DNA from: Octopus vulgaris
Taxonomy: Eukaryota
Length of the DNA stretch: 64,000 nt
NCBI GenBank assembly: GCA_951406725.2
Contig: OX597822.1
Span: forward strand, 20,460,001-20,524,000
Reading direction: 5' to 3'
This document shows, piece after piece, positions 1,162 to 58,150 of this stretch. Position numbers and translations under genes: made by a program. Numbering within the stretch: the first letter of the stretch is position 1; each line of letters opens with the position of its first letter. The notes under the pieces were generated by a model. It searched no databases and was not told the origin of the DNA. It was given only the letters and a program-made list of their open reading frames with translations.

Positions 1162-1191
1162 TATATATAAAATTATCAATATATATATATA

Positions 1192-1790
1192 TTGACTATT
1201 TTTTTTTTGCACGTTAGACCACTGGAAATGTAAATTTTGATTGAATGTTTTAATTTTAATTAAATTCCATTTCCCTTTGACATGATTAAATACTGTAAGT
1301 TTTTGGATAATTTTCGGTTAAAAGTTGGCGGCTTTTCATCGTAGCCAACGAAGGACTGCGTCTGCGCAGTAAAATTTGAAAAGTTAGTTCGTATAAACAC
1401 GAGACAAGTAACCTTGTTTGTCTTGTGTTGGATATGTTTAGCCCTAGGTTTGACCTTGCTGAAGAATATCAGACCTTGTGAGTTCTCCTTGACTCGCTAA
1501 AAGATGATCAGAAACCAATTGGTCCAAGGAACTAGATAGTAAATGTTTTTCATTTCCAAATTTATTCCTGTCGAATTTTATCCGTTATTTTTGTGGTTTA
1601 CAGAACCTAGCTGTTCTTTCTAGCGTGCTGAATTCCCTATAAGTGGATTCTTTATGTGTTTAAATATACACTATATCGTATGACTAATATATAGTCTTCT
1701 TGACTAATTTTTTTTGCACGTTAAACCACTGGAAATGTAAATTTTGATTGAATGTTTTAATTTTAATTAAATTCCATTTCCCTTTGACAT
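1192..1790 (+). mobile_element. Non-coding HHR-bearing element: 508-bp monomer plus 91-bp terminal direct repeat, in (TA)n
   Basis: 1192-1283 nearly identical to 1700-1790; (TA)n on both flanks; HHR at 1454-1529. Confidence 0.8.
1454..1529 (+). ncRNA. Type-I hammerhead ribozyme motif
   Basis: CCTTG-CTGAAGA-[stem II ATCA/TGAT with inner GTGAGT/ACTCGC]-GAAA-palindromic stem III ACCAATTGGT-GTC cleavage triplet (1522-1524)-CAAGG. Confidence 0.85.
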
Positions 1791-7952: not shown

Positions 7953-8385
7953 AATGTGGGATAAGATTGTTTTCGAAAAAAATTATTTTCGAAAAAAAAT
8001 TAATCAATGGCCAGCATATTAAAAAATACCTTTAAAGGTTAAATTTATAAACAATTCATAAATAAGGGCAAACAAAAAAATTCCTAATGCCAAATATGCC
8101 GAAAAATTGGACATATTGTCCATTAACCATATAATTTTTTCACGATACGCACGCTACTCCAAAAAAGGTCGACAGAAATTTCTAAAAAAATCCATTATTA
8201 CCATATCGGACCGATTTCAGGGTTAGCTCATAACAGCCCTCCCTTCGTCAGTGATACATGTGGCAAAAAAAATAAATGAGATACCTACTCATACCCATGG
8301 CATAAATAAGAGCAAAGGAAAAAATTTCTGATGCCAAATATGCCGAAAAAATTGGACATATTGTCCATTAACCATATAATGAATT

Positions 8386-26311: not shown

Positions 26312-27545
26312 TGTCCTAAAAAGTGTATACACACTTTAACAACTAATAACTTACTGTTCATTTCTTTTTAGATTTAGCCCATTAGAAAGAATAAAAGTAG
26401 CCAAGTTAAGCTTTAAACAAAGGACATTTAATCTAAAATACTATCGGAAGTTTAAAAAATGCAGTCGAATTCCAAAGACAGTTTAAGAGGAGGTTTGAAA
26501 CTTACTACCACTCGAATTAGAGATAAATTTGAAGCAGATGGAACTAAGAGCGACCACAAAAAAGGTTCCAGAGGGCCTCAGATATCGATGAACCGTACAA
26601 ATCAAGGAAGTATATTAAAAACGCTTTGCCAGAGATTAAGAATATCTGTGCGGCAAACGAGACGTGAGATAGAAATTTTGAAACCATGCGTCCATGGCAT
26701 TTCGAAGTATTGTCAGAAAAGTTACGTTCCAAGAATAGGTCATGTTCACAATGAAGATAATCTGGACTGAAGTGAAAAGCTTTGTCTGTAGTACTCGCTT
26801 TCTCTTTTACTCTTTTATTTGTTTCAGTCATTTGACTGCGGCCATGCTGGAGCACCGCCTTTAGTCGAATCAAATTGACCCCAGGACTTATTCTTTGTAA
26901 GCCTAGTACTTATTCTATCGATCTGTTTTGCCGAACCGCTAAGTTACGGGGACGTAGACACACCAGCAACGGTTGTCAAGCGATGTTGGGGGAACAAACA
27001 CAGATACACAACATATACACTCACATGCATATATATATATATATATACGACGGGCTTCTTTCAGTTTCCGTCTACCAAATCTACTCACAAGGCTTTGGTC
27101 GGCCCTAGGCTATAATAAGAGACACTTGCCCAAGGTGCCACGCAGTGAGAATGAACCCTGAACCATGTGGTTGGTAAGCAAGCTACTTACCACACAGCCA
27201 CTCCTGCGCCTACTTGATAAAATGTGCAGAAGATGCCGGTTTTCCACGAAAGATTGTTTGGAGTGGTGTAGCTACTTTCATATGAAATAGCTCAATTAAC
27301 AACTACAATTGCTCCTTACTGGGGATTTGGGTATCCATATATTATGGGTGAACGCCATGTTAACAAGAGTTACAGTACACTACAGTTTATCATCAAAATG
27401 ATTAATTGGACTAGTCTTTTATGGCGGTACTGTGAGTGGTCCCATGTATTTGATGCAGCAATCTGTCATTCCAAGCATTCAAGATGACTTCCAAGATTTG
27501 AATTTATTTCCTGCAAAATGGAACATCCTTTGGCTACAATAATAA
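26310..27545 (+). mobile_element. Decayed IS630/Tc1/mariner transposase (DUF4817-like N-terminus), interrupted by a SINE
   Basis: TRIRDKFEADGT, SVRQT.REI, SYVPRI.HV.NED, then after the SINE KCAEDAGFPRKIVWS, GTVSGPMY, YF.Q.. Confidence 0.65.
26796..27210 (-). mobile_element. Full-length SINE family A with 4-bp TSD (TACT)
   Basis: TACT at 26792-26795 and 27211-27214; tRNA-like head at right end, (CTTTT)-type tail at left. Confidence 0.9.
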
Positions 27546-27546
27546 T

Positions 27547-28438
27547 GTGTCAAGTGAGAGCCAGGATGACAGGATGCACAAAATACGTCCTATCGTTGAT
27601 AAAGTGGATGAATATTTCAGAACAGTGTATGTCCCCACACAGGACATTTGTCAGGACGAAAGTTTGTGGAAATTCAAGGGAAGTCTCCGATTCAAACAAT
27701 ACAACCCGAACAAACGTGCCCGCTTTAGAGTCAAGGTTTATAATGTATGCCAGTCAACTGGCAGATCCTGTGGGTGCACGTGGAATTACAAAATCTACAC
27801 TGGTCAGGATAGATTGGATCTTCCAGCATCTACTCAAGCGTCAATTGATGTGTTACCGCTGAATGAAAACTTGTTTGACAAAGGCTACAATTATTATATG
27901 GACAACTGGTTTTCTAACCCATACCTCTTCATTCAGCTGCAGGCGAGGAGGGCTAATGCCTGTGGAAATGTGAGGACACACAGGAAAAACATGCCGCCTG
28001 ATCTTCACACGATAAAACTTCGAAAGGTGGAAACGGGGTACCGATGCACTGTTTTGAACTCTACCACACTAAAGTCAATTTTTGAATTCAGGTGATAGTA
28101 AATACATGAAGTTGATCTGACTTGTGCTGTCGAGTAATCTTATTCAGGAATAATACCGCACAGAGATATAGTTTAGGTAAATAAACAGTACTTGCACTAA
28201 AGAGGTTGATGTATATGTACGCCGAACGTTATATCGCCCTGAGTGCTGATCTGAATCGGCGCGATTACCGTTGCCTCACGCAGGCAACCGAATGAATCAC
28301 CGCCGTAAACTGGTTAAAGCGGTTGATGTAAATATACGCCGAACCATTGTCGTGTGCTAATTGCTGATCTTAGCCGAGATGATTACCGTCAATGCAACCG
28401 AGCTGCTTGATAAAAAAAAAACTGTTGTCATGGGTTAA
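27547..28438 (+). mobile_element. piggyBac (PGBD4-like) transposase fragment plus 3' terminus
   Basis: ORF 27547-28095 has ICQDESLWKFKG, QYNPNKRARF and YMDNWFS (two catalytic Asp). Two ~118-bp tandem units end in GGTTAA / GGGTTAA. Confidence 0.85.
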
Positions 28439-34221: not shown

Positions 34222-36500
34222 ATGCCGGATCCTAGGTCCTACCTCCTCACCCTCCATCATCGTTTGAAGGATCATCTCCGTTCTCTTCCTGTATATTGCC
34301 TTCAGCCGTCCGTTAATCTCTCTCTACTTCTTTTTAAAAAACCCGCTTCTCTAGCCATGTCTCTTTCCTAAGCCGCTGCCTACATCACCGACTCATCCCT
34401 AAAGGTTTCCGCCTCCACTTCCACCCTGCTCTCCACTCGGATTCTTCCATCTTACCCATACTCCGCACCACATCTTACCGCCTTATGCGGGCCACCATTC
34501 GCTCCAATCTCTCTAAACTACATGCCATCAACCGCCTTCTTCCTCCTGCTTTCTCCACCTTCTTCTCCTCTCTGCCGCCTCTCTATGCTCCAAACACGCT
34601 ACGCTTCATTATCCATTTGAATCAACTCTTCCATCAATTTCTTTCTGATACCAAACTTCGTAAACTCCAATCACTCTTCCATTCCACCCTACCCGACGCC
34701 ACTACCCCAACTCCTCCACCACCCTTCTCCCCTCCCGATAGGCTCCATCCACCCACACCTAACCCCCCTGCCCCTCCCTACAACCCCGTCTCCCCTCCCG
34801 GTAGGCTCCCTCCACCTACACCTAATCCTACTGCCCCCCCCCAACCCGCCCCCCACGCACCTCCCCAATCCCTCCCCCTCAGACCTCCACGAGACCTACC
34901 ACCCCTCCTACTTCTATTCCACGTACCCCACGTACCCCCACCATTTACTTCCTCCCCAAAATCCACAAACCCAACAACCCTGGCCGCCCCATCGTCTCCG
35001 CCTGTAACTGCCCCACGGAGCTCATCTCTAAATACCTCGACCGTGTCCTTGCCCCCCTAGTGGCATCTCTTCCCTCCCACATCCACGATACCAACCATGC
35101 TCTCCGGCTTTTCAACTCTTTCTCCTTTCCTCCCGGCTCCTCCAAAATCTTTTTTACTATGGATATCCAAAGCCTCTATACTGTTATCCCTCACCACGAA
35201 GGACTGCAGGCCCTTCGACACTTTCTTGACCTCCGCTCTAACCCTGTACCTGACACCTCCACACTCATTCGTCTGGCCGAACTTGTCCTTACTCTGAACT
35301 GCTTCTCGTTCGCGGGCGAGTTCTACCATCAGGTCTCGGGAGTGGCCATGGGAACGCGAATGGGCCCCAACTATGCGAACCTGTTCGTTGGCTATGTTGA
35401 GGCCCAAATATTCTCTAATTTCACCGGTCCCACTCCTGAACTATATGGTCGTTACATTGACGACATTATCGGTGCCACCTCACTCTCCCGTGAACATCTA
35501 GATTCCTTCCTCTCTTTCGTCCAATCTTTCCATCCAGCCCTCCACTTCCCTTCTACTATCTCCAACACCTCTGTCTCCTTCCTCGACATTTCGGTTAGCA
35601 TTCTTCACTCCACTCTTACCACCTCCATTCACTACAAACACACAGACTCACACTCATACCTCAACTTCTCTTCCTCCCACCCAGAACACACCAAGCTTTC
35701 CATCCCCTATTCCCAATTCCTCCGTCTACGTAGGCTCTGTAGTGACGACCATGACTTTGAGACTCAGTCTCAACGTATGGCTCACCACTTCACCCTACGT
35801 GGATACCCCCTCACCACTATCCACACCGCCCTTGCCAGAGCACGGTCCGTGGACCGTGTATCTGCTCTCTCTCCCCGAACCCGCTCTGTAGACTCCGCCT
35901 CCCTTTTCCCCTCACTTACCACCCCCCGACCCTACCTCTCCAACGCACCATTCTTCGAGCTTTCCGTCATCTCCAGTCCGACCCGTCCACTTCACACCTC
36001 TTCCCTAACCGACCCCTCCCCTCTTTCAAACGAGCCCACAACCTTCGAGACCTTTTGGTCCATAGCTCCTTCCCTGACCCTACCTCCCAACCCGGCTCGT
36101 TCCCCTGTTCCCGCCCACGTTGCCGCACTTGCCCTTACCTCTCCAACACCACCCTCCTCACTAGCACCCACCATCGACCCTATCCCATCATCCACTCCTT
36201 CACCTGCACCTCCAGCAATATTATCTATTGCGTCTCTTGCTCTCTCTGCCATTCCTTGTACATCGGACAAACGGGACGCCGCTTGGCTGACCGGTTCGCG
36301 GAACACCTTCGTGACATCCACCTTGCGAACGACACACCGGTCTCACGCCATTTCCGCTCCACCGGTCAGTCCTTGCAACACCTATCTGTGTTCGGTTTGT
36401 CCTTACACAGAGGCCGTCCGGATTCCCGTTTGCGCCGTGAACAGGAATTAATCTTCTCTCTTCGCTCTTATACGCCATTTGGTCTCAACTCTCCCCCCTC
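34222..36500 (+). pseudogene. Penelope-like RT-GIY-YIG polyprotein, frameshifted and internally deleted
   Basis: HVSFLSRC..RLIPKGFRL; YFLPKIHKPNNPGRPIVS; MDIQSLYT; GVAMGTRMGPNYAN; GRYIDD; CSRPRCRTC; IIYCVSCSLCHSLYIGQTGRRLADRFAEH; REQELIFSL...PFGLN. Confidence 0.92.
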
Positions 36501-37140
36501 CTCATCTAACCCCCCTCTCCCCCTCCTCACCTATCCTTCCCCCCGACCCCTACTTCTCCAGTCTTTCATCCTTTCACCCCTACTCCCCTTCCCTTCTTCC
36601 CTCTTTCTCCCTCCCTCCTTCCCTCTGCTCCCCCCTTCTCTCTCCCCCTCTCCCTCTTTTCTCCTTCCTCCCCCTCCACCCCTTCCTTCTCCCCCTCCTC
36701 TCCTCTTCCCCTCTCTCCTCCCCCTCTTCTTCCCCTCCACTTCTCCTCCCCTCTTCTCCCCCTCCCCTCTTCTCACTACACCACACGACTTTACACATCA
36801 CATCATATATGATGTGCCATACTAATACATACACCAACTAATACATACTAATACATACTAATACATACACCAATCCTATACATACACACGTCCAGACCCC
36901 TCATACGCACTTATACTCTCTCATACACACACACACACACTTATACATACTAATACGTACTAATACATACTAATACATACTAATACATACACCAACCCCA
37001 TACATACGCACGTCCAGACCTATCCTACGCACTAATACTCTCTCATACACACACACACACATACACACACCCTTATACATACTAATACATACTAATACAT
37101 ACACCAACCCTATACATACACACGTCCAGACCTCTCCTAC
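36490..37140. repeat. Polypyrimidine tract and ATACATACTA-based minisatellite in the PLE 3' region
   Basis: Nearly pure C/T at 36490-36775; three ~120-bp units with cacgtccagacc at about 36890, 37012 and 37124. Confidence 0.8.
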
Positions 37141-37317
37141 GCCTTAATAGCTGGTCATTCAACCCTATTATCAATCCTATTATCTCCCCTTATTTCGCTC
37201 TCGCGTCTCATGTTTGATCTTTGACCTCTGGCCGAAATCAGATCGCCATGTTGATTCGTTAGTTACTGCACGCATTTTTTTCTCTCCTTCTTTCTGTGTT
37301 TTTTTTCTCTCTGTGTA

Positions 37318-37355
37318 TCTTTCTGTTGAAGAGCGTAGGCTCGAAACGTTAAAGA
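37318..37355 (+). ncRNA. Minimal type-I hammerhead motif at PLE 3' end (A6U core variant)
   Basis: TCTTT-CTGTTGA-A-GAGC-GTAG-GCTC-GAAAC-GT-T-AAAGA. Confidence 0.75.
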
Positions 37356-37455
37356 CTTGTTTTATTTATATTTCCTGAGCGCCATACTAATACAATTGTT
37401 TGTTTGTTTTCCACCTGCCTTCGTCTTTTGTCTATTTTCATAAAGCTTCCCGTTA

Positions 37456-39080
37456 TAGTTGCGGCCAAAATGTTCAGAACGGCATTGTTTTCGTCAGAAA
37501 AGTAGGTATAAATTTTTATCAAAGTTGTTTTATATTCTATAATTTTCACAGACAATAAATACAATATTAATTGTTATTGTCTGAGCTTTTGGTGTAATTT
37601 GAGAGGATAATACAAAAGTTATGGATGATTTAGTGATTTACTGCAAAACCAATGGCGGCCAAAATGATGAGAACGGTTGAAAAAATAACAAAATAATCAA
37701 AAATGACAGAGAATACTGGAATTATTTAATATTTAGTGTGAAGCCCTTTAGCTTCAATCACACTCTGACGTTTTCGACTGCATGAGGAAATTAAATTTTC
37801 AATTTCTTGCTGGGTGATCTTATTCCATTCTTCCTGAAGGGCATTCCATAATTGCTCAGTTGTTTTAGGATTTCTGGCTTTCGAACGTTCTAGAATATTC
37901 CACACATTTTCAATAGGATTGAGATCTGGGCTTTGAGCTGGCCAATCCATGACAATAACCTTTTCAGCCTTGAGGAAGTTCATGACCACCTTAGCCTTGT
38001 GACATGGGGCATTGTCCTGCATGAATATGGGTGGTCGCTTAGTTGAATTTCTCAGCACAGGCAAGACATGATCTTTTACAAGTTGTTTATAAACTCCTAC
38101 ATTTAACTTTTCATGTAATCGCACCAAAGGGCCCACACCATCTCCAGATATCATCCTTCAAACCATAATACTTCCTCCACCGAATTTAACACTAGTCTTA
38201 AGGCATTTAGGCAACAATTTTTCACCTACTTTTCTACGAAAGTACCTTTTCCCATCTGAGCCAAATAGCATAAACTTAGATTCATCACTGAAATGCACCG
38301 TTTGCCATTTTTCTTGAGACCACAACACATGTTCGGTTGCAAAGGTAAGACGACACTTTTTATTATTGGAGCTGATCAGTGGCTTCACTGCAGGTGCTCT
38401 TGCTTGTAGATCATGTTCAACTAAACGACGAGACACGGTTTTTCGAGATAAAGTTTTCTTCAATACAATGCTCATTTTCCGAGAAACAGCAACAGCAGTT
38501 TTAAATCTGTCCTTTTTAACCAACTTTACCATAGCACGATCTTCTCTCTTGGTCGTTTTTCTTGGCCTACCTGTAAACTTTCTTGCTCACACGAACCACA
38601 ATCATCGTAGACCTTAAGAATACCGTGTACAACACTTTTTGACTTGCTAACAATATTTGCAATAGATCCAATACTTAAATTATGCGTCCTTCGAAGCTTA
38701 ATAATCTGCTGACGTATTGGTAACGGAGTAAGTGGCATTATATTAACAAAGTACACTGCAAATATTCTTACTAATGTTTAGTAAACGAACCGTCACGTAA
38801 ATAAATTCAAAACATGAGAGTTCGCCGGTTAAATATACTAAAACACGGAGTAAAAGCAACCGTTCTGATCATTTTGGCCGCCATGGGTTTTGCAGTAAAT
38901 CACTAAATCATCTATAACTTTTGTATTATCCTCTCAAATTACACCAAAATCTCAGGCAATAACAAATAATATTGTATTTATTGTCTGTGAAAATTATAGA
39001 ATATAAAACAACTTTGATAAAAAATTATATCTACATTTCTGACGAAAACAATGCCGTTCTGAACATTTTGGCCGCAACTG
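37456..39080 (-). mobile_element. Full-length Tc1 transposon, IR/DR type, TA TSD
   Basis: ~220-bp TIRs (37456-37678 / 38858-39080), each with two gcggccaaaatg.t.agaacgg direct repeats; TA on both sides. Confidence 0.95.
37726..38738 (-). pseudogene. Tc1 DD34E transposase (one frameshift near 38590, one stop near 38158)
   Basis: GRPRKTT, FSDESKF, KFGGGSIMV*, QDNAPCH-(34 aa)-E in SPDLNPIENVW, ends GLHTKY. Confidence 0.93.
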
Positions 39081-39082
39081 TA

Positions 39083-39450
39083 TATAAAACTGAGATTGTG
39101 TGTCTGTCTGTGTGAATCCCTAAAACTTGAGAACTACACAATCAATTTCATTCAAATTTTATACATGCCTTGCTTAGGGTCTTTGTAGTGTCTGGGCAAA
39201 AACAATTTTTAACATCTTGCCTAGGGCGAGCCCATAGCAATATCATATCTTCTCCAGTGTGAATCCCTAAAATTCGAGAACTACACAACCAACTTCATTC
39301 AAATTTTACACATGCCTTACTAAAGGTCCTTGTTGTGTCTGGGCAAAAAATGTTTAACTTCTTGCCTAGGGCGAGCCCACAGCAATATTTCATCTTCTCC
39401 ACTATTTCAGTATTACGTGTTAAAAGTGAAACAAAAGCATCTCTCTATTG
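39083..39450 (+). mobile_element. Helitron-like 5' fragment with ~147-bp tandem duplication
   Basis: tataaaactgagattgtgtgtctg start like 32631; gtgtgaatccctaaaa...tatcttctcca duplicated (about 39110-39257 / 39258-39401). Confidence 0.5.
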
Positions 39451-39461
39451 TATGTATATGG

Positions 39462-39524
<63 letters not shown>

Positions 39525-39743
39525 TCAATATCAGGGTAGCAAAAAATTCAATAGAAATTTTTTTGCCACCAGCGGTCTAGTGAGAAAGAAAAAATAGTCA
39601 ACAGACTATATAATGTACATTCAACGATAATATTAAGGAATGGCCTTAATAGGCCATTCAACTCACTAAAACGAGCAGCCAAACTCAAGCCGCTAAATAG
39701 TAGTAATTCAGAAATCAAAGGAAAATTAAAAACATTTACCCTT

Positions 39744-39849
39744 CTTTGGACTATGCATAGTTTAGACGTCCTTTTTGGCAAACCAGCTTAATTAAATTAA
39801 GTTAAATTTAATCAAGTCAATTTACCACTGGCCCGTCTCATCGGCAAAG
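39744..39849 (-). ncRNA. Hammerhead motif with G12 mutated (TAAA), probably inactive
   Basis: CTTTG-CCGATGA-GACG...CGTC-TAAA-perfect palindrome ACTATGCATAGT-C-CAAAG. Confidence 0.7.
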
Positions 39850-40430
39850 AAGCCAGGGGGAGTATATATTCCACGAGGCAACAGCATCGATGCCTTGGGA
39901 ATATATACTCTAAATTTTCAAAATCTACCGTCATCGCGCCAACTTATCAGCAGCAAATATAAACTGCTGATTTAATTTCAGAATTAGCCAAAAAATCATT
40001 AATTAATCAATATCAGGGTAGCAAAAAATTCAATAGAATTTTTTTCGCCACCAGCGGGCTTGTGAGAAAGAAAAAATAGTCAACAGACTATATAATGTAC
40101 ATTTAACAATAATATTAAGGAATGGCCTTAATAGGCCATTCAACTCACTAAAACGAGCAGCTAAACTCAAACCGCTAAATAGTAGTAATTCAGTAATCAA
40201 AGGAAAATTAAAAACATTTACCCTTATCATCTTTGGACTATGCATTGTTTCGACGTACTTTTTGGCAAACCAGCTTAGATGATAAAGGTAAATGTTTTTA
40301 ATTTTCCTTTGATTTCTGAATTACTAATGCTGATAGGTTGGCGCGATGAAGGTAGATTTTGAAAATTTAGAGTATATATTCCCAAGGCATCGATGCTGTT
40401 GCCTCGTGGAATATATACTCCCCCTGGCTT

Positions 40431-40536
40431 CTTTGCCGATGAGACGGGCCAGTGGTAAATTGACTTGATTAAATTAAATTTAATTTAATTAAGCTGGTTT
40501 GCCAAAACGTACGTCGAAACCATGCATAGTCCAAAG
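40431..40536 (+). ncRNA. Type-I hammerhead motif with long stem II (U4C core variant)
   Basis: CTTTG-CCGATGA-GACG-(65-nt hairpin)-CGTC-GAAAC-CATGCATA-GTC-CAAAG. Confidence 0.8.
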
Positions 40537-40646
40537 GTGATAAGGGTAAATGTTTATATGTATATGTATAGATGTCTTTCTATAGATATACATGTATATA
40601 TAAATATGTATGTCTAGATGTATATATAGATGTACATGTAATGTGT

Positions 40647-40722
<76 letters not shown>

Positions 40723-40779: not shown

Positions 40780-41090
40780 AGGTGCAGGTGTGGCTGTGTG
40801 GTAACAGACTTGGTTTCAAAACACATGGTCTTCAGTTCAGTCCCACTGTGTGGTAACTTGGCATGTGCCTTCTGCTATAGCCTTGTCAGTGGATTTTGTA
40901 GACAGAAACTGAAACAAATCAATTGTATGTATATGTATGAATATATGTAAGTCTATGTGTGTGTCTTTGTGTTTCTCCCTTATCACTGCTTCACAACCAG
41001 TGTTCGTTTATTTACATCCCCATAACTTACTGGTTTCACAAGAAGAAACTGATAGAATAAGTACCAGGCTTATCAAAATATAAAAAAAGC
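40780..41090 (+). mobile_element. SINE family A, diverged; 3' part tandemly duplicated
   Basis: aggtgcaggtgtggctgtgtggtaa...agttcagtcccactg...gatagaataagtacc. Confidence 0.75.
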
Positions 41091-41282: not shown

Positions 41283-43762
41283 TTTGGTATTGACAACATG
41301 AATGACAATGGTCAGAGACTACTTGAATTTTGCACATACCGTAACCCGCGCATCACCAACACATTCTTTGCCAACAAGACATCCCACAAGGCATCTTGGA
41401 GACATCCAAGGTCTCATCACTGGCATCAGCTGAATCTCATCATTACACGAAGATCCTTTCTGAATTCTGCTCAACTGACCCGTAGTTACCACAGCGTGGA
41501 TTGTGACACAAATTATTCACTAATAAGAAGCGGGGTGAGGATTCTGCCTAAAAACGTCCATCACTCCATGAAAATGGGTCAAATACGCATTAACACTGGC
41601 AGAACCTCGGACCCTACACTGCGACAATGTTTTGCTGTTTCTATCAAGGTTGCACTCAGTAGCTGCCCAACCTCCTCTGCTGAAAGTAGGTGGAATTATA
41701 TCAGGGAAGCTTTGTATACCACATCAGTTGATACTTTCGGCATGAGAGAAAGGAAAAACCCAGATTGGTTCAGTGCTGGGCTCTCAGAGATGGAAACAAT
41801 TATCGAAGCAAAGCGTGCAGCTCCGATGCAATACAAGAGTGATTCTTCAACAAAGTCACTCGAAGAACTCAGAAAGGCAAGAAATGAAACCCAACAGACT
41901 GCCAGACGCTGTACAAATAGGTACTGGCAGGAAATCTGTCAGAGTATCCAGTCAGCTGCTGACAGTGGCGACACCCGCGGGATGTATGCCGGTTTGAAGA
42001 AGGCCCTCAGTCCATACGCAACCAAGTCAGCCCCTCTGAAATCAACTACTGGGGATCTCATCAAGGACCAAAGCAAGCAAATGGGTAGAGTACTACAAGG
42101 ATCTGTACTCACGAGAGACCACGGTAGCTGAGGCTGCAATCGAGGGTGTCAAGATCTTGACAGTCATGTGTAAACTTGACAGTCTGTCATCTATAGCAGA
42201 GCTCACCAAGTCTATTGACTCCCTAGCAAGTAACAAGGCTCCGGGAAAAGACGGCATCCCCTTAGAGATCATCAAAACCGGCAAAAACACCATCCTGCTT
42301 CGGCACATTCATGAGCTTCTGTGTCAGTGCTGAGAAGAGGGTACAGTCCCTCAGGATATTCGGGATGCTAACAGCATTACGCTTTACAAAAACAAAGGTG
42401 ACCGTGGTGATTGTAACAATTACCGTGGAATATCTCTTCTAAGCACTGTTGGAAAGGCCTCTGCTCGCATTATCCTGTCCAGGCTACAACTGCTTGCTTC
42501 TCGAATTTATCTAGAATCGCAGTGTGGCTTTAGAAGAAGCAGATCAACTATTGACATGATATTCTCCATACGCCAACTTCAGGAGAAGTCCAGAGAGCAG
42601 AAAATGTCATTATATATGGCCTTCATTGATCGGCCTTTGACTTGGTAAGTAGAAAAGGTCTCTTTATCCTGCTCCAAAAAATCGGATGTCCACCAAAGCT
42701 GCTGAGGATCATCAAATCTTTCCATGATGATATGCAAGGCACCATACAGAACAATAGTTCAACATCAGCCGCCTTCCAAATAAAAATCGGGATAAAGCAA
42801 GCTTGTGTCCTTGCTCCTACATTATTTGTCATCTTCTTCTCGCTGCTGCTGTCACATGTCGTTGAGACATCAGATGATGGATTGTTTCTGCACAGTAGAA
42901 GTGATGGGAAATTGTTCAATCTCTCGCGTCTGCGTGCCAAGACCAAAATCAGAAGCGTCCTGATCAAGGAGATGCTATTTGCTGATGGTGCCGCTCTGGT
43001 ATCACACACAGAAGAAGCTCATCAACTGCTTTGAGCAAGCATGTGGCAACTTTGGCTTAGTTATCAGCCTCAAGAAGACCAACATCATGGGTCAGGCTAC
43101 ATCGACCACTCCAAACATACATATTGGAGACCACAGACTACAGGAGGTGGAGAAGTTTACCTATCTTGGCTCTACCGTCACCTACAACCTATTCCGTGAT
43201 GCTGAGCTCAATATACGCATTGGCAAGGCAGCTGCTGTGATGGCCCAACTCTCCAAACGGGCATGGGACAACAATAAGCTGACCAAGACCACAAACATGA
43301 AGATTTACCAGGCATGTGTACTTACCACTCTACTGTATGGAAGTGAGACTTGGACACCATACACACGCCATACGTCGCCTAAATATCTTTCACCTGCGCT
43401 GCCTCCGGAAAATCCTTCACATCAGATGGCAGAATCATGTCCCCAACAAAGATGTCCTCAAGCAAGCAGGAATACCAAGCATGTTTGCACTCCTCACACA
43501 AAGACGTATGAGATAGCTTGGACATGTTAGCCCTTACGATACAAGGACGTTTGCAAAAGGAACATGAATGCCTGCAACATCAATATTACCAACTGGGAAG
43601 CAGTTGCCAGCAACCGTGGAGATTGGCGACGTACCGTAAAAGAGGGAACACAAAGAAGTGACATAGAGAGAGAGGAGAACTGGAAAGACAAGAAAACACG
43701 TCAACAAGAAACTATGACATTACAACCAGCCAGGCAAAGTCTTCGCTACATTTGCGGCACCT
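41283..43762 (+). mobile_element. 5'-truncated RTE-clade LINE (APE C-terminus + RT), frameshifted
   Basis: NDNGQRLLEFC...ITNTFF...SWRHPRSHHWHQL; KAPGKDGIPLE; NYRGISLLS; ESQCGFRRSRSTIDMIF; KQACVLAPTLF; LFADG (from FADD); FTYLGS; LLYGSETW. Confidence 0.93.
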
Positions 43763-43945
43763 CATCACTGCTTCGCAACTGCTGTTCATTTATTTACATC
43801 CACTTAACTTACTGGTTTTACAAGAACAAACTAATAGAATAAGTACTAGGCTTATCAACATAAAAAAGCACTAGGCTGTGTCTCATACTTTTGTTTGCCC
43901 ACTCAGTTGTATCTATCAATTTATCTTTGTATGTGTGTGTGTCTA

Positions 43946-56447: not shown

Positions 56448-58150
56448 TCACTAATTACCAACAGGGTCCAATGGACCCAATATTTTTCTCTTAATGAAAT
56501 TTTATTCAAGCTACCACTATTTCTTAGTTACATTATATATGCCATCAGGTGAATGAAGAATTACTGTTCTCACAAATTTTAATAAAAAAATACAGCTTAC
56601 AGAATATATTATAAATTTAAAAAATTACAAAAATACAGAATTACAGCTCTTCATGGCAGTGAATGCAGGGAACATTGCAATGTTCTTGGCAAACATGGCT
56701 TTACAATTCTTACATGTAGTATGAGTTCTCTTGTCTTTTTTGGGGCCACACAAAAACATCTTTCTTTTTTCTTTGGCTGAAGAATCTCAAAAGAGGTTGA
56801 AGATCGTCTTCTTTTCTTGTTTGGTTAAGAAATGTTAGAACTAGAACAGAGTTTGTCGTATTCTTGTTTCGCATTAACTCCAACACGTTCTTTTCCTAAC
56901 TAAATTAAGCAGTCTTCTTTTATCCTTGAAACTTTTCAAGTGAAGATGTTTAGCAACAATGAAAGCATTCACTGCACTTATATCAATCATGTTCTAGAAT
57001 AAAACGATTGGCCATCTTCGAGTCATTCTTTTGCAAATGTATGTCCTTACCATCATATCTAGGGTATTTCCTCCCACTTTTGTTTTGTTGTAACATGTAA
57101 TAACTTCAGGTTTCTTTTCAGCACGTTTTGAATCAATTAAAGGCTGAGAGTGTATTGTACTCATAAGTGTGACAACATAATTTTTCTTGAGACAATAAGA
57201 TAGGATCATAGAATCCTTTTGAAATCCAAATATTGTGCTGTTGATTTTTCTTTCCTTTCTATTTGTGAAAGCACTTGGAAGTTCAACTCTGTTCCAAATA
57301 AAGTAGCTTTTTTGCTAAGCAGCTTTCGAGCCAATCCTAGACTTGAAAAAAAATTATCAAAAGTTATAATGCGACCAATATTTTCAAGCTCTTTTCAAGC
57401 TAGTCTTCAACAAATCTTGAACTTTGATTTGTTTCTCTCTCTTTTACTGTGCCTTTTCCAGCGTAGATTTGCATTTTTCAGTCATAATTTGGGCATATTG
57501 CCCAAATTTTAATTCCATATTTTCCTGGTTTTGAAGGAATAAATACTCGGAATGGGCAGCGCCCTCTGAATGAAACTAATTATTCATCAACTATCATGCA
57601 TGAACTTGGAACATGTCCATCTTGCAAATTCTGACTCCACATTTTAAATACTTCTCTTATGGGCTCCATTTCCTCATCACTTTTCTTTTTTCTTCTTGCA
57701 CTAGCATCATCAAAACGCAATATTTGTAAAATCTGTTGAAATCTTCCCTAGTTCATAATATTGTTGACACTTGGGTGGGTGGGGCATCTTTTTGATTACA
57801 TAACTGTGTGACATTTGCATGGTTAGATTTATAAACACCTATAAGAATAATCAGTCCCATAAAATTCTTTAGTACTAAGTGATCAATTTCCTTCCACTTA
57901 TATTTGTAAACAACCTTTGTCCATTTACGAATTACTTCAAGAAGACTCTGGCGCATAAACATAGTAAAACATTTTTCAATGATATCGCATCACCTTTTAG
58001 CAAACCCGGATGGTTCACATTCTTGGCGCACAATATGGCAAAATAAGGTTCTTATTACTGCTTGAGTAAGAGGATTAGAATGTCAAACTCCTTATCTGTT
58101 TCTAGAAACATATTGCTCATTCATAGTTGGGTGGCTTGCAGATAATTGGT
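56448..58150 (-). mobile_element. Decayed piggyBac (PGBD4-like) transposon
   Basis: RFQQILQILRFDD, IVDE*LVSFRGRCPFR.FIPSKPGKYGIK, FDNFFS, YNKTKVGG.TLD, RRWP, C-terminal Cys-rich tail. Confidence 0.85.

Follow-up and report, generated by a model that had tools for sequence, protein, structure and literature searches.

Layout of the insertion

To describe the locus, we compared the window (the whole stretch of Octopus vulgaris DNA that was analysed, 64,000 nucleotides) with itself. This comparison showed about 1.6 direct copies of a repeat unit (39520-40277; 1.57 units) and one inverted unit, joined head to head and bounded on either side by TA microsatellites (Table 1), and it thereby confirmed the earlier note's description of ∼1.6 direct copies followed by two inverted pieces. 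The direct copies (39520-40001 and 40002-40277) are 94% identical over 276 nt, and the inverted pieces comprise 50 nt (40277/40284-40326) and 231 nt (40328-40558; 94% identity). The unit had been given as 482 bp, which is indeed the period at the locus; the family unit, however, is 487 nt, as the 5 nt absent from copy 1 at 39742 are restored in family contigs.

Table 1. Features of the locus and its distant relative (window coordinates)
Feature	Position	Strand	Evidence
(TA)n tract, left end of insertion, likely target	39467..39521		sequence make-up
Copy 1, whole unit of 482 nt, shorter than 487 by a private deletion of 5 nt behind 39742	39520..40001	-	self-comparison, family contigs
Copy 1 hammerhead: C4 at 39843, G12 lost at 39764	39743..39849	-	descriptor scan, family contigs, folding
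Strong hairpin just 5' of the ribozyme	39860..39910	-	family contigs, folding
Copy 2, 5'-truncated within 3' arm of stem II hairpin	40002..40277	-	self-comparison
Inverted arm, first piece (unit positions 4-52)	40277..40326	+	self-comparison, joint analysis
Inverted arm, second piece (unit positions 284-487, then ∼22-27 nt beyond the cut)	40328..40558	+	self-comparison, joint analysis
Sole whole-core hammerhead in the locus (40431-40536)	40430..40537	+	descriptor scan, constrained folding
65-nt insert in stem II, with a 6x7 internal loop below a 52-nt, 23-bp hairpin (40453-40504)	40447..40511	+	folding
TA-rich degenerate microsatellite, right end	40556..40720		sequence make-up
Distant relative of the unit, a partial tandem of 508 bp flanked by TA tracts	1178..1790	+	alignment, folding

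Numbered from the ribozyme cut site, the left arm holds positions 445-487, 1-487, and 1-234, and the right arm holds positions 4-52, 284-487, and 1-22/27. In ribozyme sense, the direct copies read leftward (minus strand) and the inverted pieces rightward (plus strand). The arms meet at their 5' ends at 40277, where the first inverted piece begins 3-4 nt past the cut site and overlaps copy 2 by 1 nt; the two 3' ends of the insertion lie at unit position 234 (copy 1, at 39520) and at positions 22-27. The inversion point falls in a palindromic hairpin, and both internal joints overlap by ≤1 nt. The two inverted pieces, which are separated by 231 missing nt and carry one extra base at their joint, are collinear parts of one sense-oriented unit, and a deletion, instead of a template switch, may thus account for the second junction. 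The "at least two template switches" read from this layout in the earlier note are thus not forced, as one inversion and one deletion fit equally well. No target-site duplication was discernible at the locus, the flanks sharing only one 10-nt microsatellite word, and no 30-40-nt tail could be shown at the insertion ends. The locus shows two features of a PLE insertion unit, namely (i) a partial tandem with an adjacent head-to-head inverted 5'-truncated copy and (ii) an AT-rich or microsatellite target, here TA tracts at both ends.

The hammerhead ribozyme copies

A type I hammerhead descriptor, scanned over both strands of the window, returned one canonical motif (8200-8255), a second (40432-40535) with position 4 freed, and a third (39745-39848) with both position 4 and G12 freed. 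The same descriptor gave no match in any of 30 block-shuffled windows, indicating that the hammerhead motif is not due to chance, and the ribozyme regions fold at z values of -2.7 to -3.7. At the gathering score, Rfam yielded 0 matches in the 64-kb window, and none of 51 weak Rfam matches in 39400-40700 was a hammerhead.

The earlier note had reported two complete ribozyme copies reading CCGATGA. The motif is present in both 5' halves (39844-39838, minus strand; 40436-40442, plus strand), but the core is complete only in the plus-strand copy. At 39764, copy 1 has TAAA where GAAA is expected, and its hammerhead (cut site between 39749 and 39748) is predicted to be dead; copy 2 holds the 3' ribozyme half only (cut site between 40236 and 40235). 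A consecutive pair of complete ribozymes is therefore not present, and with a tandem of one half and one G12-less ribozyme the locus itself falls short of a non-LTR retrozyme in this respect.

In the whole-core hammerhead, stem I has 6 bp, the core carries C4 at 40437, stem II is formed by 40443-40446 and 40512-40515, G12 lies at 40516, stem III contains one mismatch, and the cut would fall after 40531. Constrained folding gave a stem I of 6 bp that continues through an internal loop into a distal stem of 4 bp, together with a 4-bp stem II and a 2-4-bp stem III, the whole lying 3.8 kcal/mol above the free minimum. Only in copy 1 is the 12-nt stem III palindrome perfect, with a self-duplex of -17.3 kcal/mol versus -8.1 kcal/mol in the other two copies. 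In the predicted fold, the 4-bp palindromic stem III of the family ribozyme could be used singly or as a dimer. A U follows stem I and an A ends the loop 2 strand, an arrangement that would match the loop 1-loop 2 contact of the Schistosoma ribozyme. The three helices surround the core and are open at helix I, as in type I hammerheads, but the core departs from CUGANGA ... GAAA ... UH in that U4 is replaced by C in both 5' halves. On sequence grounds, we class the ribozyme as a U4C variant of the type I hammerhead and not as a canonical member, since U4C occurs naturally and has been described as weakly active (PMC3088659). The family ribozyme likely cuts slowly owing to C4.

The stem II insert and other hairpins

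Stem II had been described as containing a 65-nt AT-rich hairpin. The distance between the stem II strands is indeed 65 nt, although the hairpin itself accounts for 52 nt (23 bp). It includes five G-U pairs and is more stable in the sense strand (-19.2 kcal/mol) than in the other strand (-9.0 kcal/mol), which would point to selection on the sense-strand RNA. As it sits beyond the loop that would contact stem I, the long hairpin likely leaves the core undisturbed in the predicted fold.

The other strong hairpins named in the earlier note fold as claimed. In the hairpin at 39860-39910, the outer 13 bp are perfect at the locus, and the family differs at 39862 and at 39865 (60-100% by run); the relative at 1178-1790 has a hairpin of different sequence at the matching place. 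The locus alleles at 39862 and 39865, which are rare in the family, make the outer stem a perfect palindrome, and they possibly reflect template-switch correction of a quasi-palindrome.

Relatives and neighbouring elements

The distant relative at 1178-1790 aligns collinearly with the unit at a score of 123, compared with 32.6 ± 4.7 (maximum 54) in 200 shuffles and a best unrelated score of 44 among 204 windows. Its hammerhead (1454-1529) has a canonical U4, the same 6x7 loop, a 20-nt stem II hairpin, a compensatory stem I pair, and its own, different stem III palindrome; the base of its stem II is damaged, and for this reason the first descriptor overlooked it. The 3' end of the relative lies within ∼8 nt of the left end of the locus on the unit, which hints at a shared reverse transcriptase (RT) start site ∼230 nt past the cut, as internal initiation described in a lizard PLE would predict (PMC11167929).

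A second partial tandem, of 244 bp, lies between (TA)n tracts at 8057-8380 (minus strand) and bears the canonical type I hammerhead (8255-8200), whose stem II has an internal loop and a small hairpin (18 nt) and whose stem III is near-palindromic. As a homologue of the unit it was rejected (score 30 versus 32 in shuffles). Judged from these three sequences, the "giant" stem II stands at the upper end of a local range of lengths, with 20 nt in the relative and 18 nt in the 8200-8255 motif.

A PLE with an RT lies 3 kb from the locus, as a frameshifted ORF at 34338-37440 (plus strand; RT by Pfam). It carries a minimal hammerhead (37318-37355) with U at position 6 and an extra base before stem II, and a CX4CxxC ahead of its GIY-YIG-like motif, as in Neptune/Nematis (PMC8557442). 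We found no homology of the unit to this element, the only PLE in the window, and identified no autonomous partner of the unit within the window. A Tc1/mariner-type element with 226-bp, 96% identical terminal inverted repeats and a broken DDE transposase occupies 37454-39082, and two 145-147-bp tandem units, ∼88% alike, lie between it and the locus (39110-39401). Further elements are a SINE at 40780, which together with the microsatellite-rich make-up points to octopus; a broken LINE at 41290-43800 (plus strand; RT by Pfam), which we take to be RTE-type; and two piggyBac-like transposase remnants (PF13843) at 27500-28100 (plus strand) and 56997-57314 (minus strand). Pfam searches of 149 ORFs (6 long ones and 143 others, the latter being 138 of 194 filtered short ones plus 5 more) found only transposon domains and one sub-cutoff DUF match, and no host exon of the window was found among them.

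The repeat family in sequencing-run contigs

Twenty-four sequencing runs under four organism labels were listed, 20 of which contain part of the stretch, the best with a share of 0.41 of the sampled words; no RNA run was among the holders listed. For the family comparison, one run per label (4 of the 24) was used, with contigs matching the unit (39725-40234) at 80% likeness; such contigs show presence only, and not strand, ends, or level. They numbered 810, 770, 466, and 352 in the four runs, indicating a high-copy family.

At 39764, essentially all depth in all four runs keeps G12, so that its loss in copy 1 is private. At 39843, U4 has no row among the 40 of 85 variant rows listed, where the lowest top share is 0.33 (computed for the 14 lowest-looking rows, the rest being higher by inspection); if the rows are ranked by share, as we infer, U4 would make up less than about one third of the depth in every run. 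C4 is therefore likely the family majority, and the prospect raised in the earlier note, that C4 might be private to this locus, likely does not hold. G-to-A changes occur at 6, 7, 8, and 9 places per run, 5 of them among the 40 of 85 rows listed.

The 65-nt stem II insert is, from the same contigs, likely a family-level trait as well: (i) contig depth does not dip over the insert (39776-39827), (ii) contig pieces (records 9, 25, and 26) run from within the stem II hairpin across the core, and (iii) no joint cleanly removing the insert occurs among the joints listed. One insert variant is listed for all four runs (39822, 29-51%), and it turns an A-U pair into a G-U pair.

Contig pieces and one wrap-around joint together cover the 487-nt cycle, and no piece spanning the whole unit occurs among the 32 of 2426 pieces listed. 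The share running on into unlike sequence is only 1-4% (0.01-0.04). This gives no sign of an attached ORF and is more in keeping with a closed non-coding unit than with a pLTR that continues into an ORF. The longest stop-free frame in the unit is 72 codons, no ORF was found to start inside it, and the five ORFs within the locus gave 0 Pfam domain matches. The unit shares with non-LTR retrozymes the character of a non-coding repeated unit with one type I hammerhead, and it lacks the RT and GIY-YIG ORF of an autonomous PLE. Two metagenome pattern scans returned 0 loci.

The unit could alternatively be the pLTR of an autonomous PLE, in which case the locus would be a pile of 5'-truncated pLTR pieces and not a free-standing retrozyme, with the insertion mechanism unchanged. 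Most PLE copies are described as 5'-truncated and keeping only the pLTR (bioRxiv 10.64898/2026.07.22.740005), and in the four runs the region 39946-40217 has 4.0-7.4 times the summed contig depth of 39776-39928, so that many copies would be part-units, although summed depth is not copy number and diverged subfamilies sharing only 39946-40217 would look alike. Loose ends, where such elements might be seen to continue, are listed for 24 of 301. We nevertheless regard this reading as unlikely, because contig pieces cross 39935-40033 and the rest of the cycle without a dominant exit, no ORF starts in the unit, and the relative at 1178-1790 is also a closed cycle, of 508 bp.

From bin 39946-39962 to bin 39929-39945, summed depth drops 2.6- to 4.9-fold in each of the four runs. 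This drop lies at a small hairpin and ≤6 nt from the start of the second inverted piece, and perhaps it marks a second family end point.

Origin of the inverted arrangement

Both locus-specific junctions are absent among the four joints listed from the contigs of the four runs, so the layout is that of the source assembly alone. We compared alleles between the arms, entering 30 of the 40 listed rows and leaving out 6 rows at 39766-39775 (most of them mainly from one run) and 4 single-copy places. Copy 1 and the inverted arm carry the same allele at all 13 of the 13 family-variable places compared, among them rare alleles at 39858, 39862, and 39865, from which 60-100% of family depth differs. 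Between copies 1 and 2 the match is 8 of 10 such places, and copy 2 alone departs from the family at five further places. Private changes number 8 in 209 nt and 12 in 272 nt, or ∼2% per copy overall. Together, the shared rare alleles and the private changes are consistent with a single old insertion and speak against an artefact by fold-back. The base equivalent to 39770 is common to copy 2 and the inverted arm and is absent from copy 1 and from the 40 of 85 family rows listed, suggesting either that the template was not a single uniform unit or that conversion followed later.

That the inverted arm arose in assembly, from a fold-back read or a misjoin of collapsed repeat copies, is accordingly very improbable. 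Structures of this kind are known to trouble assemblies (PMC8557442), and to the missing junctions may be added that the best run contains only 0.41 of the sampled words; but the run contigs likely derive from other individuals, and contigs drop rare forms. A fold-back, moreover, would duplicate private changes, whereas the arms differ at 8 of 209 places and by the 5-nt indel, and at these differences the family matches sometimes the one arm and sometimes the other; three rare alleles in common would not be expected from a misjoin of unrelated copies.

A biological but post-insertional origin, in which fold-back repair or palindrome instability in a tandem array produced the inversion and the gap without reverse transcription, would account for the palindromic hairpin at the inversion point, for the ≤1-nt overlaps at both internal joints, and for the base that copy 2 and the inverted arm share and copy 1 lacks; microhomology-mediated deletions of PLE copies have also been described (PMC3846280). 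It is quite unlikely, however, given that head-to-head inverted 5'-truncated copies are a common primary product of PLEs (PMC8557442, PMC3846280), that both outer ends adjoin TA tracts, and that the inverted arm has positions 284-444, which are not adjacent to the inversion point in copy 2.

Partial tandem and inverted layouts, a microsatellite bias, and junction palindromes are reported for PLE insertions (PMC8557442, PMC3846280), and the layout in (TA)n at this locus matches that published anatomy, which supports the PLE-type origin proposed in the earlier note from the partial tandem and inverted ends. We regard the locus as an ordinary PLE-type insertion of a retrozyme-like repeat that is predicted to be dead. 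As a fuller account, we consider it probable that it represents one decayed insertion of a high-copy, non-coding 487-nt type I hammerhead repeat, likely a retrozyme-like PLE derivative that was probably copied in trans by PLE enzymes.

In the mechanism that we propose, a multimeric, partly uncut RNA would have served as the template, and PLE enzymes (reverse transcriptase and endonuclease), supplied in trans, would have acted on a (TA)n target. One target strand would have primed cDNA synthesis ∼230 nt downstream of a cut site, and this first cDNA would have run back over 1.6 units before ending in the stem II hairpin. A second cDNA, primed by the other target strand, would have reached ≤4 nt from a cut site, and the 5' ends of the two cDNAs would then have been joined head to head; for such arrangements, PMC3846280 argues instead for self-priming on the antisense template, which may also apply here. 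Opposite-strand hammerhead pairs 100-700 bp apart have been noted elsewhere (PMC4209133). The 231-nt gap may have arisen during copying or later. An RT jump over a folded domain was rejected as a simple source of the gap, as neither the linear nor the circular predicted fold brings positions 52 and 284 together. That the inverted arm begins close to the cut site is weak evidence when taken alone, with a chance of 0.02 for one end and of 0.07-0.11 allowing for 4-6 ends.

Predicted double-stranded RNA

The plus strand of the locus folds into helices of ∼204, 52, and 13 bp, with a similar fold on the minus strand, and a read-through transcript is thus predicted to form a duplex of ∼270 bp. The duplex foreseen in the earlier note as a possible ADAR or siRNA substrate is therefore predicted for either strand; the idea is nonetheless generic and not special to this locus, as the window has other inverted pairs, including one of 226 bp and 96% identity 2 kb away. 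Because octopus shows exceptional hyper-editing and many such duplexes (PMC5625713), a transcript of the locus, if made, would be a plausible ADAR target. As a ribozyme, the locus is predicted to be inert, since the minus-strand ribozymes are broken and the intact plus-strand one would pair with its antisense copy, which is made first on a plus-strand transcript and would bury it. Both the locus and its possible dsRNA are, in these respects, ordinary.

Possible significance of the U4C core

What appears to be new is modest and lies at the level of the family, namely the likely fixed U4C core and the long stem II appendage of the predicted ribozyme. We found no paper on octopus hammerheads or retrozymes in the literature searched, mainly the main text of non-subscription papers, and the main text of a 2026 octopus repeat annotation contains 0 occurrences of "ribozyme" (PMC13282606). 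In the same literature, U4C and CCGAUGA each led to a single paper, these being PMC3088659 and an unrelated therapeutic one.

A bolder reading, which we hold to be rather unlikely, is that a retrozyme family of cephalopods has become fixed for a "slow" U4C hammerhead, one that escapes both descriptor and Rfam yet works in vivo, its cut setting the 5' ends of inserts. Were this true, partial cutting would yield both multimers and circles, and in vivo cutting would explain the start of the inverted arm 3-4 nt past the cut site and the 4-7-fold greater contig depth 3' of the cut compared with the ribozyme part. It would also provide a genome-scale test of the hammerhead's role in Penelope-type transposition, a role that has been called unclear (PMC8557442); in vitro work on a PLE reports that cleavage is unnecessary and finds no RNA ends at the cut site (PMC11167929). 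A high-copy family that keeps G12, the stems, and the sense-strand hairpin, yet has C4, would suggest selection for a weak ribozyme, and, if such a family is real, counts based on CUGANGA and short loops would miss whole families.

Comparison with known systems

Animal non-LTR retrozymes likewise consist of a non-coding, AT-rich, hairpin-rich unit with one type I hammerhead, and they likewise occur as partial tandems in high copy alongside coexisting PLEs (PMC7229834; bioRxiv 10.64898/2026.07.22.740005). There is a mollusc precedent in the mussel, with units of 350-390 bp in ∼5000 copies (same sources). At 487 nt, the octopus unit is longer than the 170-400 nt of invertebrate retrozyme circles, but it falls within the 51-972 bp given in the preprint. 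It differs further from retrozymes in its C4 core, which the CUGANGA descriptor misses, and in its 65-nt stem II insert, and a circular RNA form of it is putative.

The endonuclease-positive PLEs show the same insertion anatomy, with a partial tandem and an adjacent head-to-head inverted 5'-truncated copy, a palindrome at the inverted junction, an AT-rich or (TA)n target, and a 3' end downstream of the hammerhead (PMC8557442, PMC3846280, PMC11167929). In contrast to these elements, the octopus locus has no RT/GIY-YIG ORF, and no homologous autonomous element was found in the window.

With metazoan type I hammerheads, the octopus ribozyme shares a 6-bp helix I, a 4-bp helix II starting from G10.1-C11.1, and a palindromic helix III able to pair between tandem copies (PMC4209133). 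Its helix III, however, can close 4 bp in the monomer as opposed to the usual 1-2 bp, and its loop 2, unlike that of the metazoan ribozymes (PMC4209133), takes the form of an internal loop with a 23-bp hairpin on top. The same core change is described in a viroid, where U4C lowers activity considerably in vitro but leaves enough for infectivity (PMC3088659). There it is a variant within a viroid population, whereas here U4C likely prevails in a family of genomic repeats found under four organism labels.
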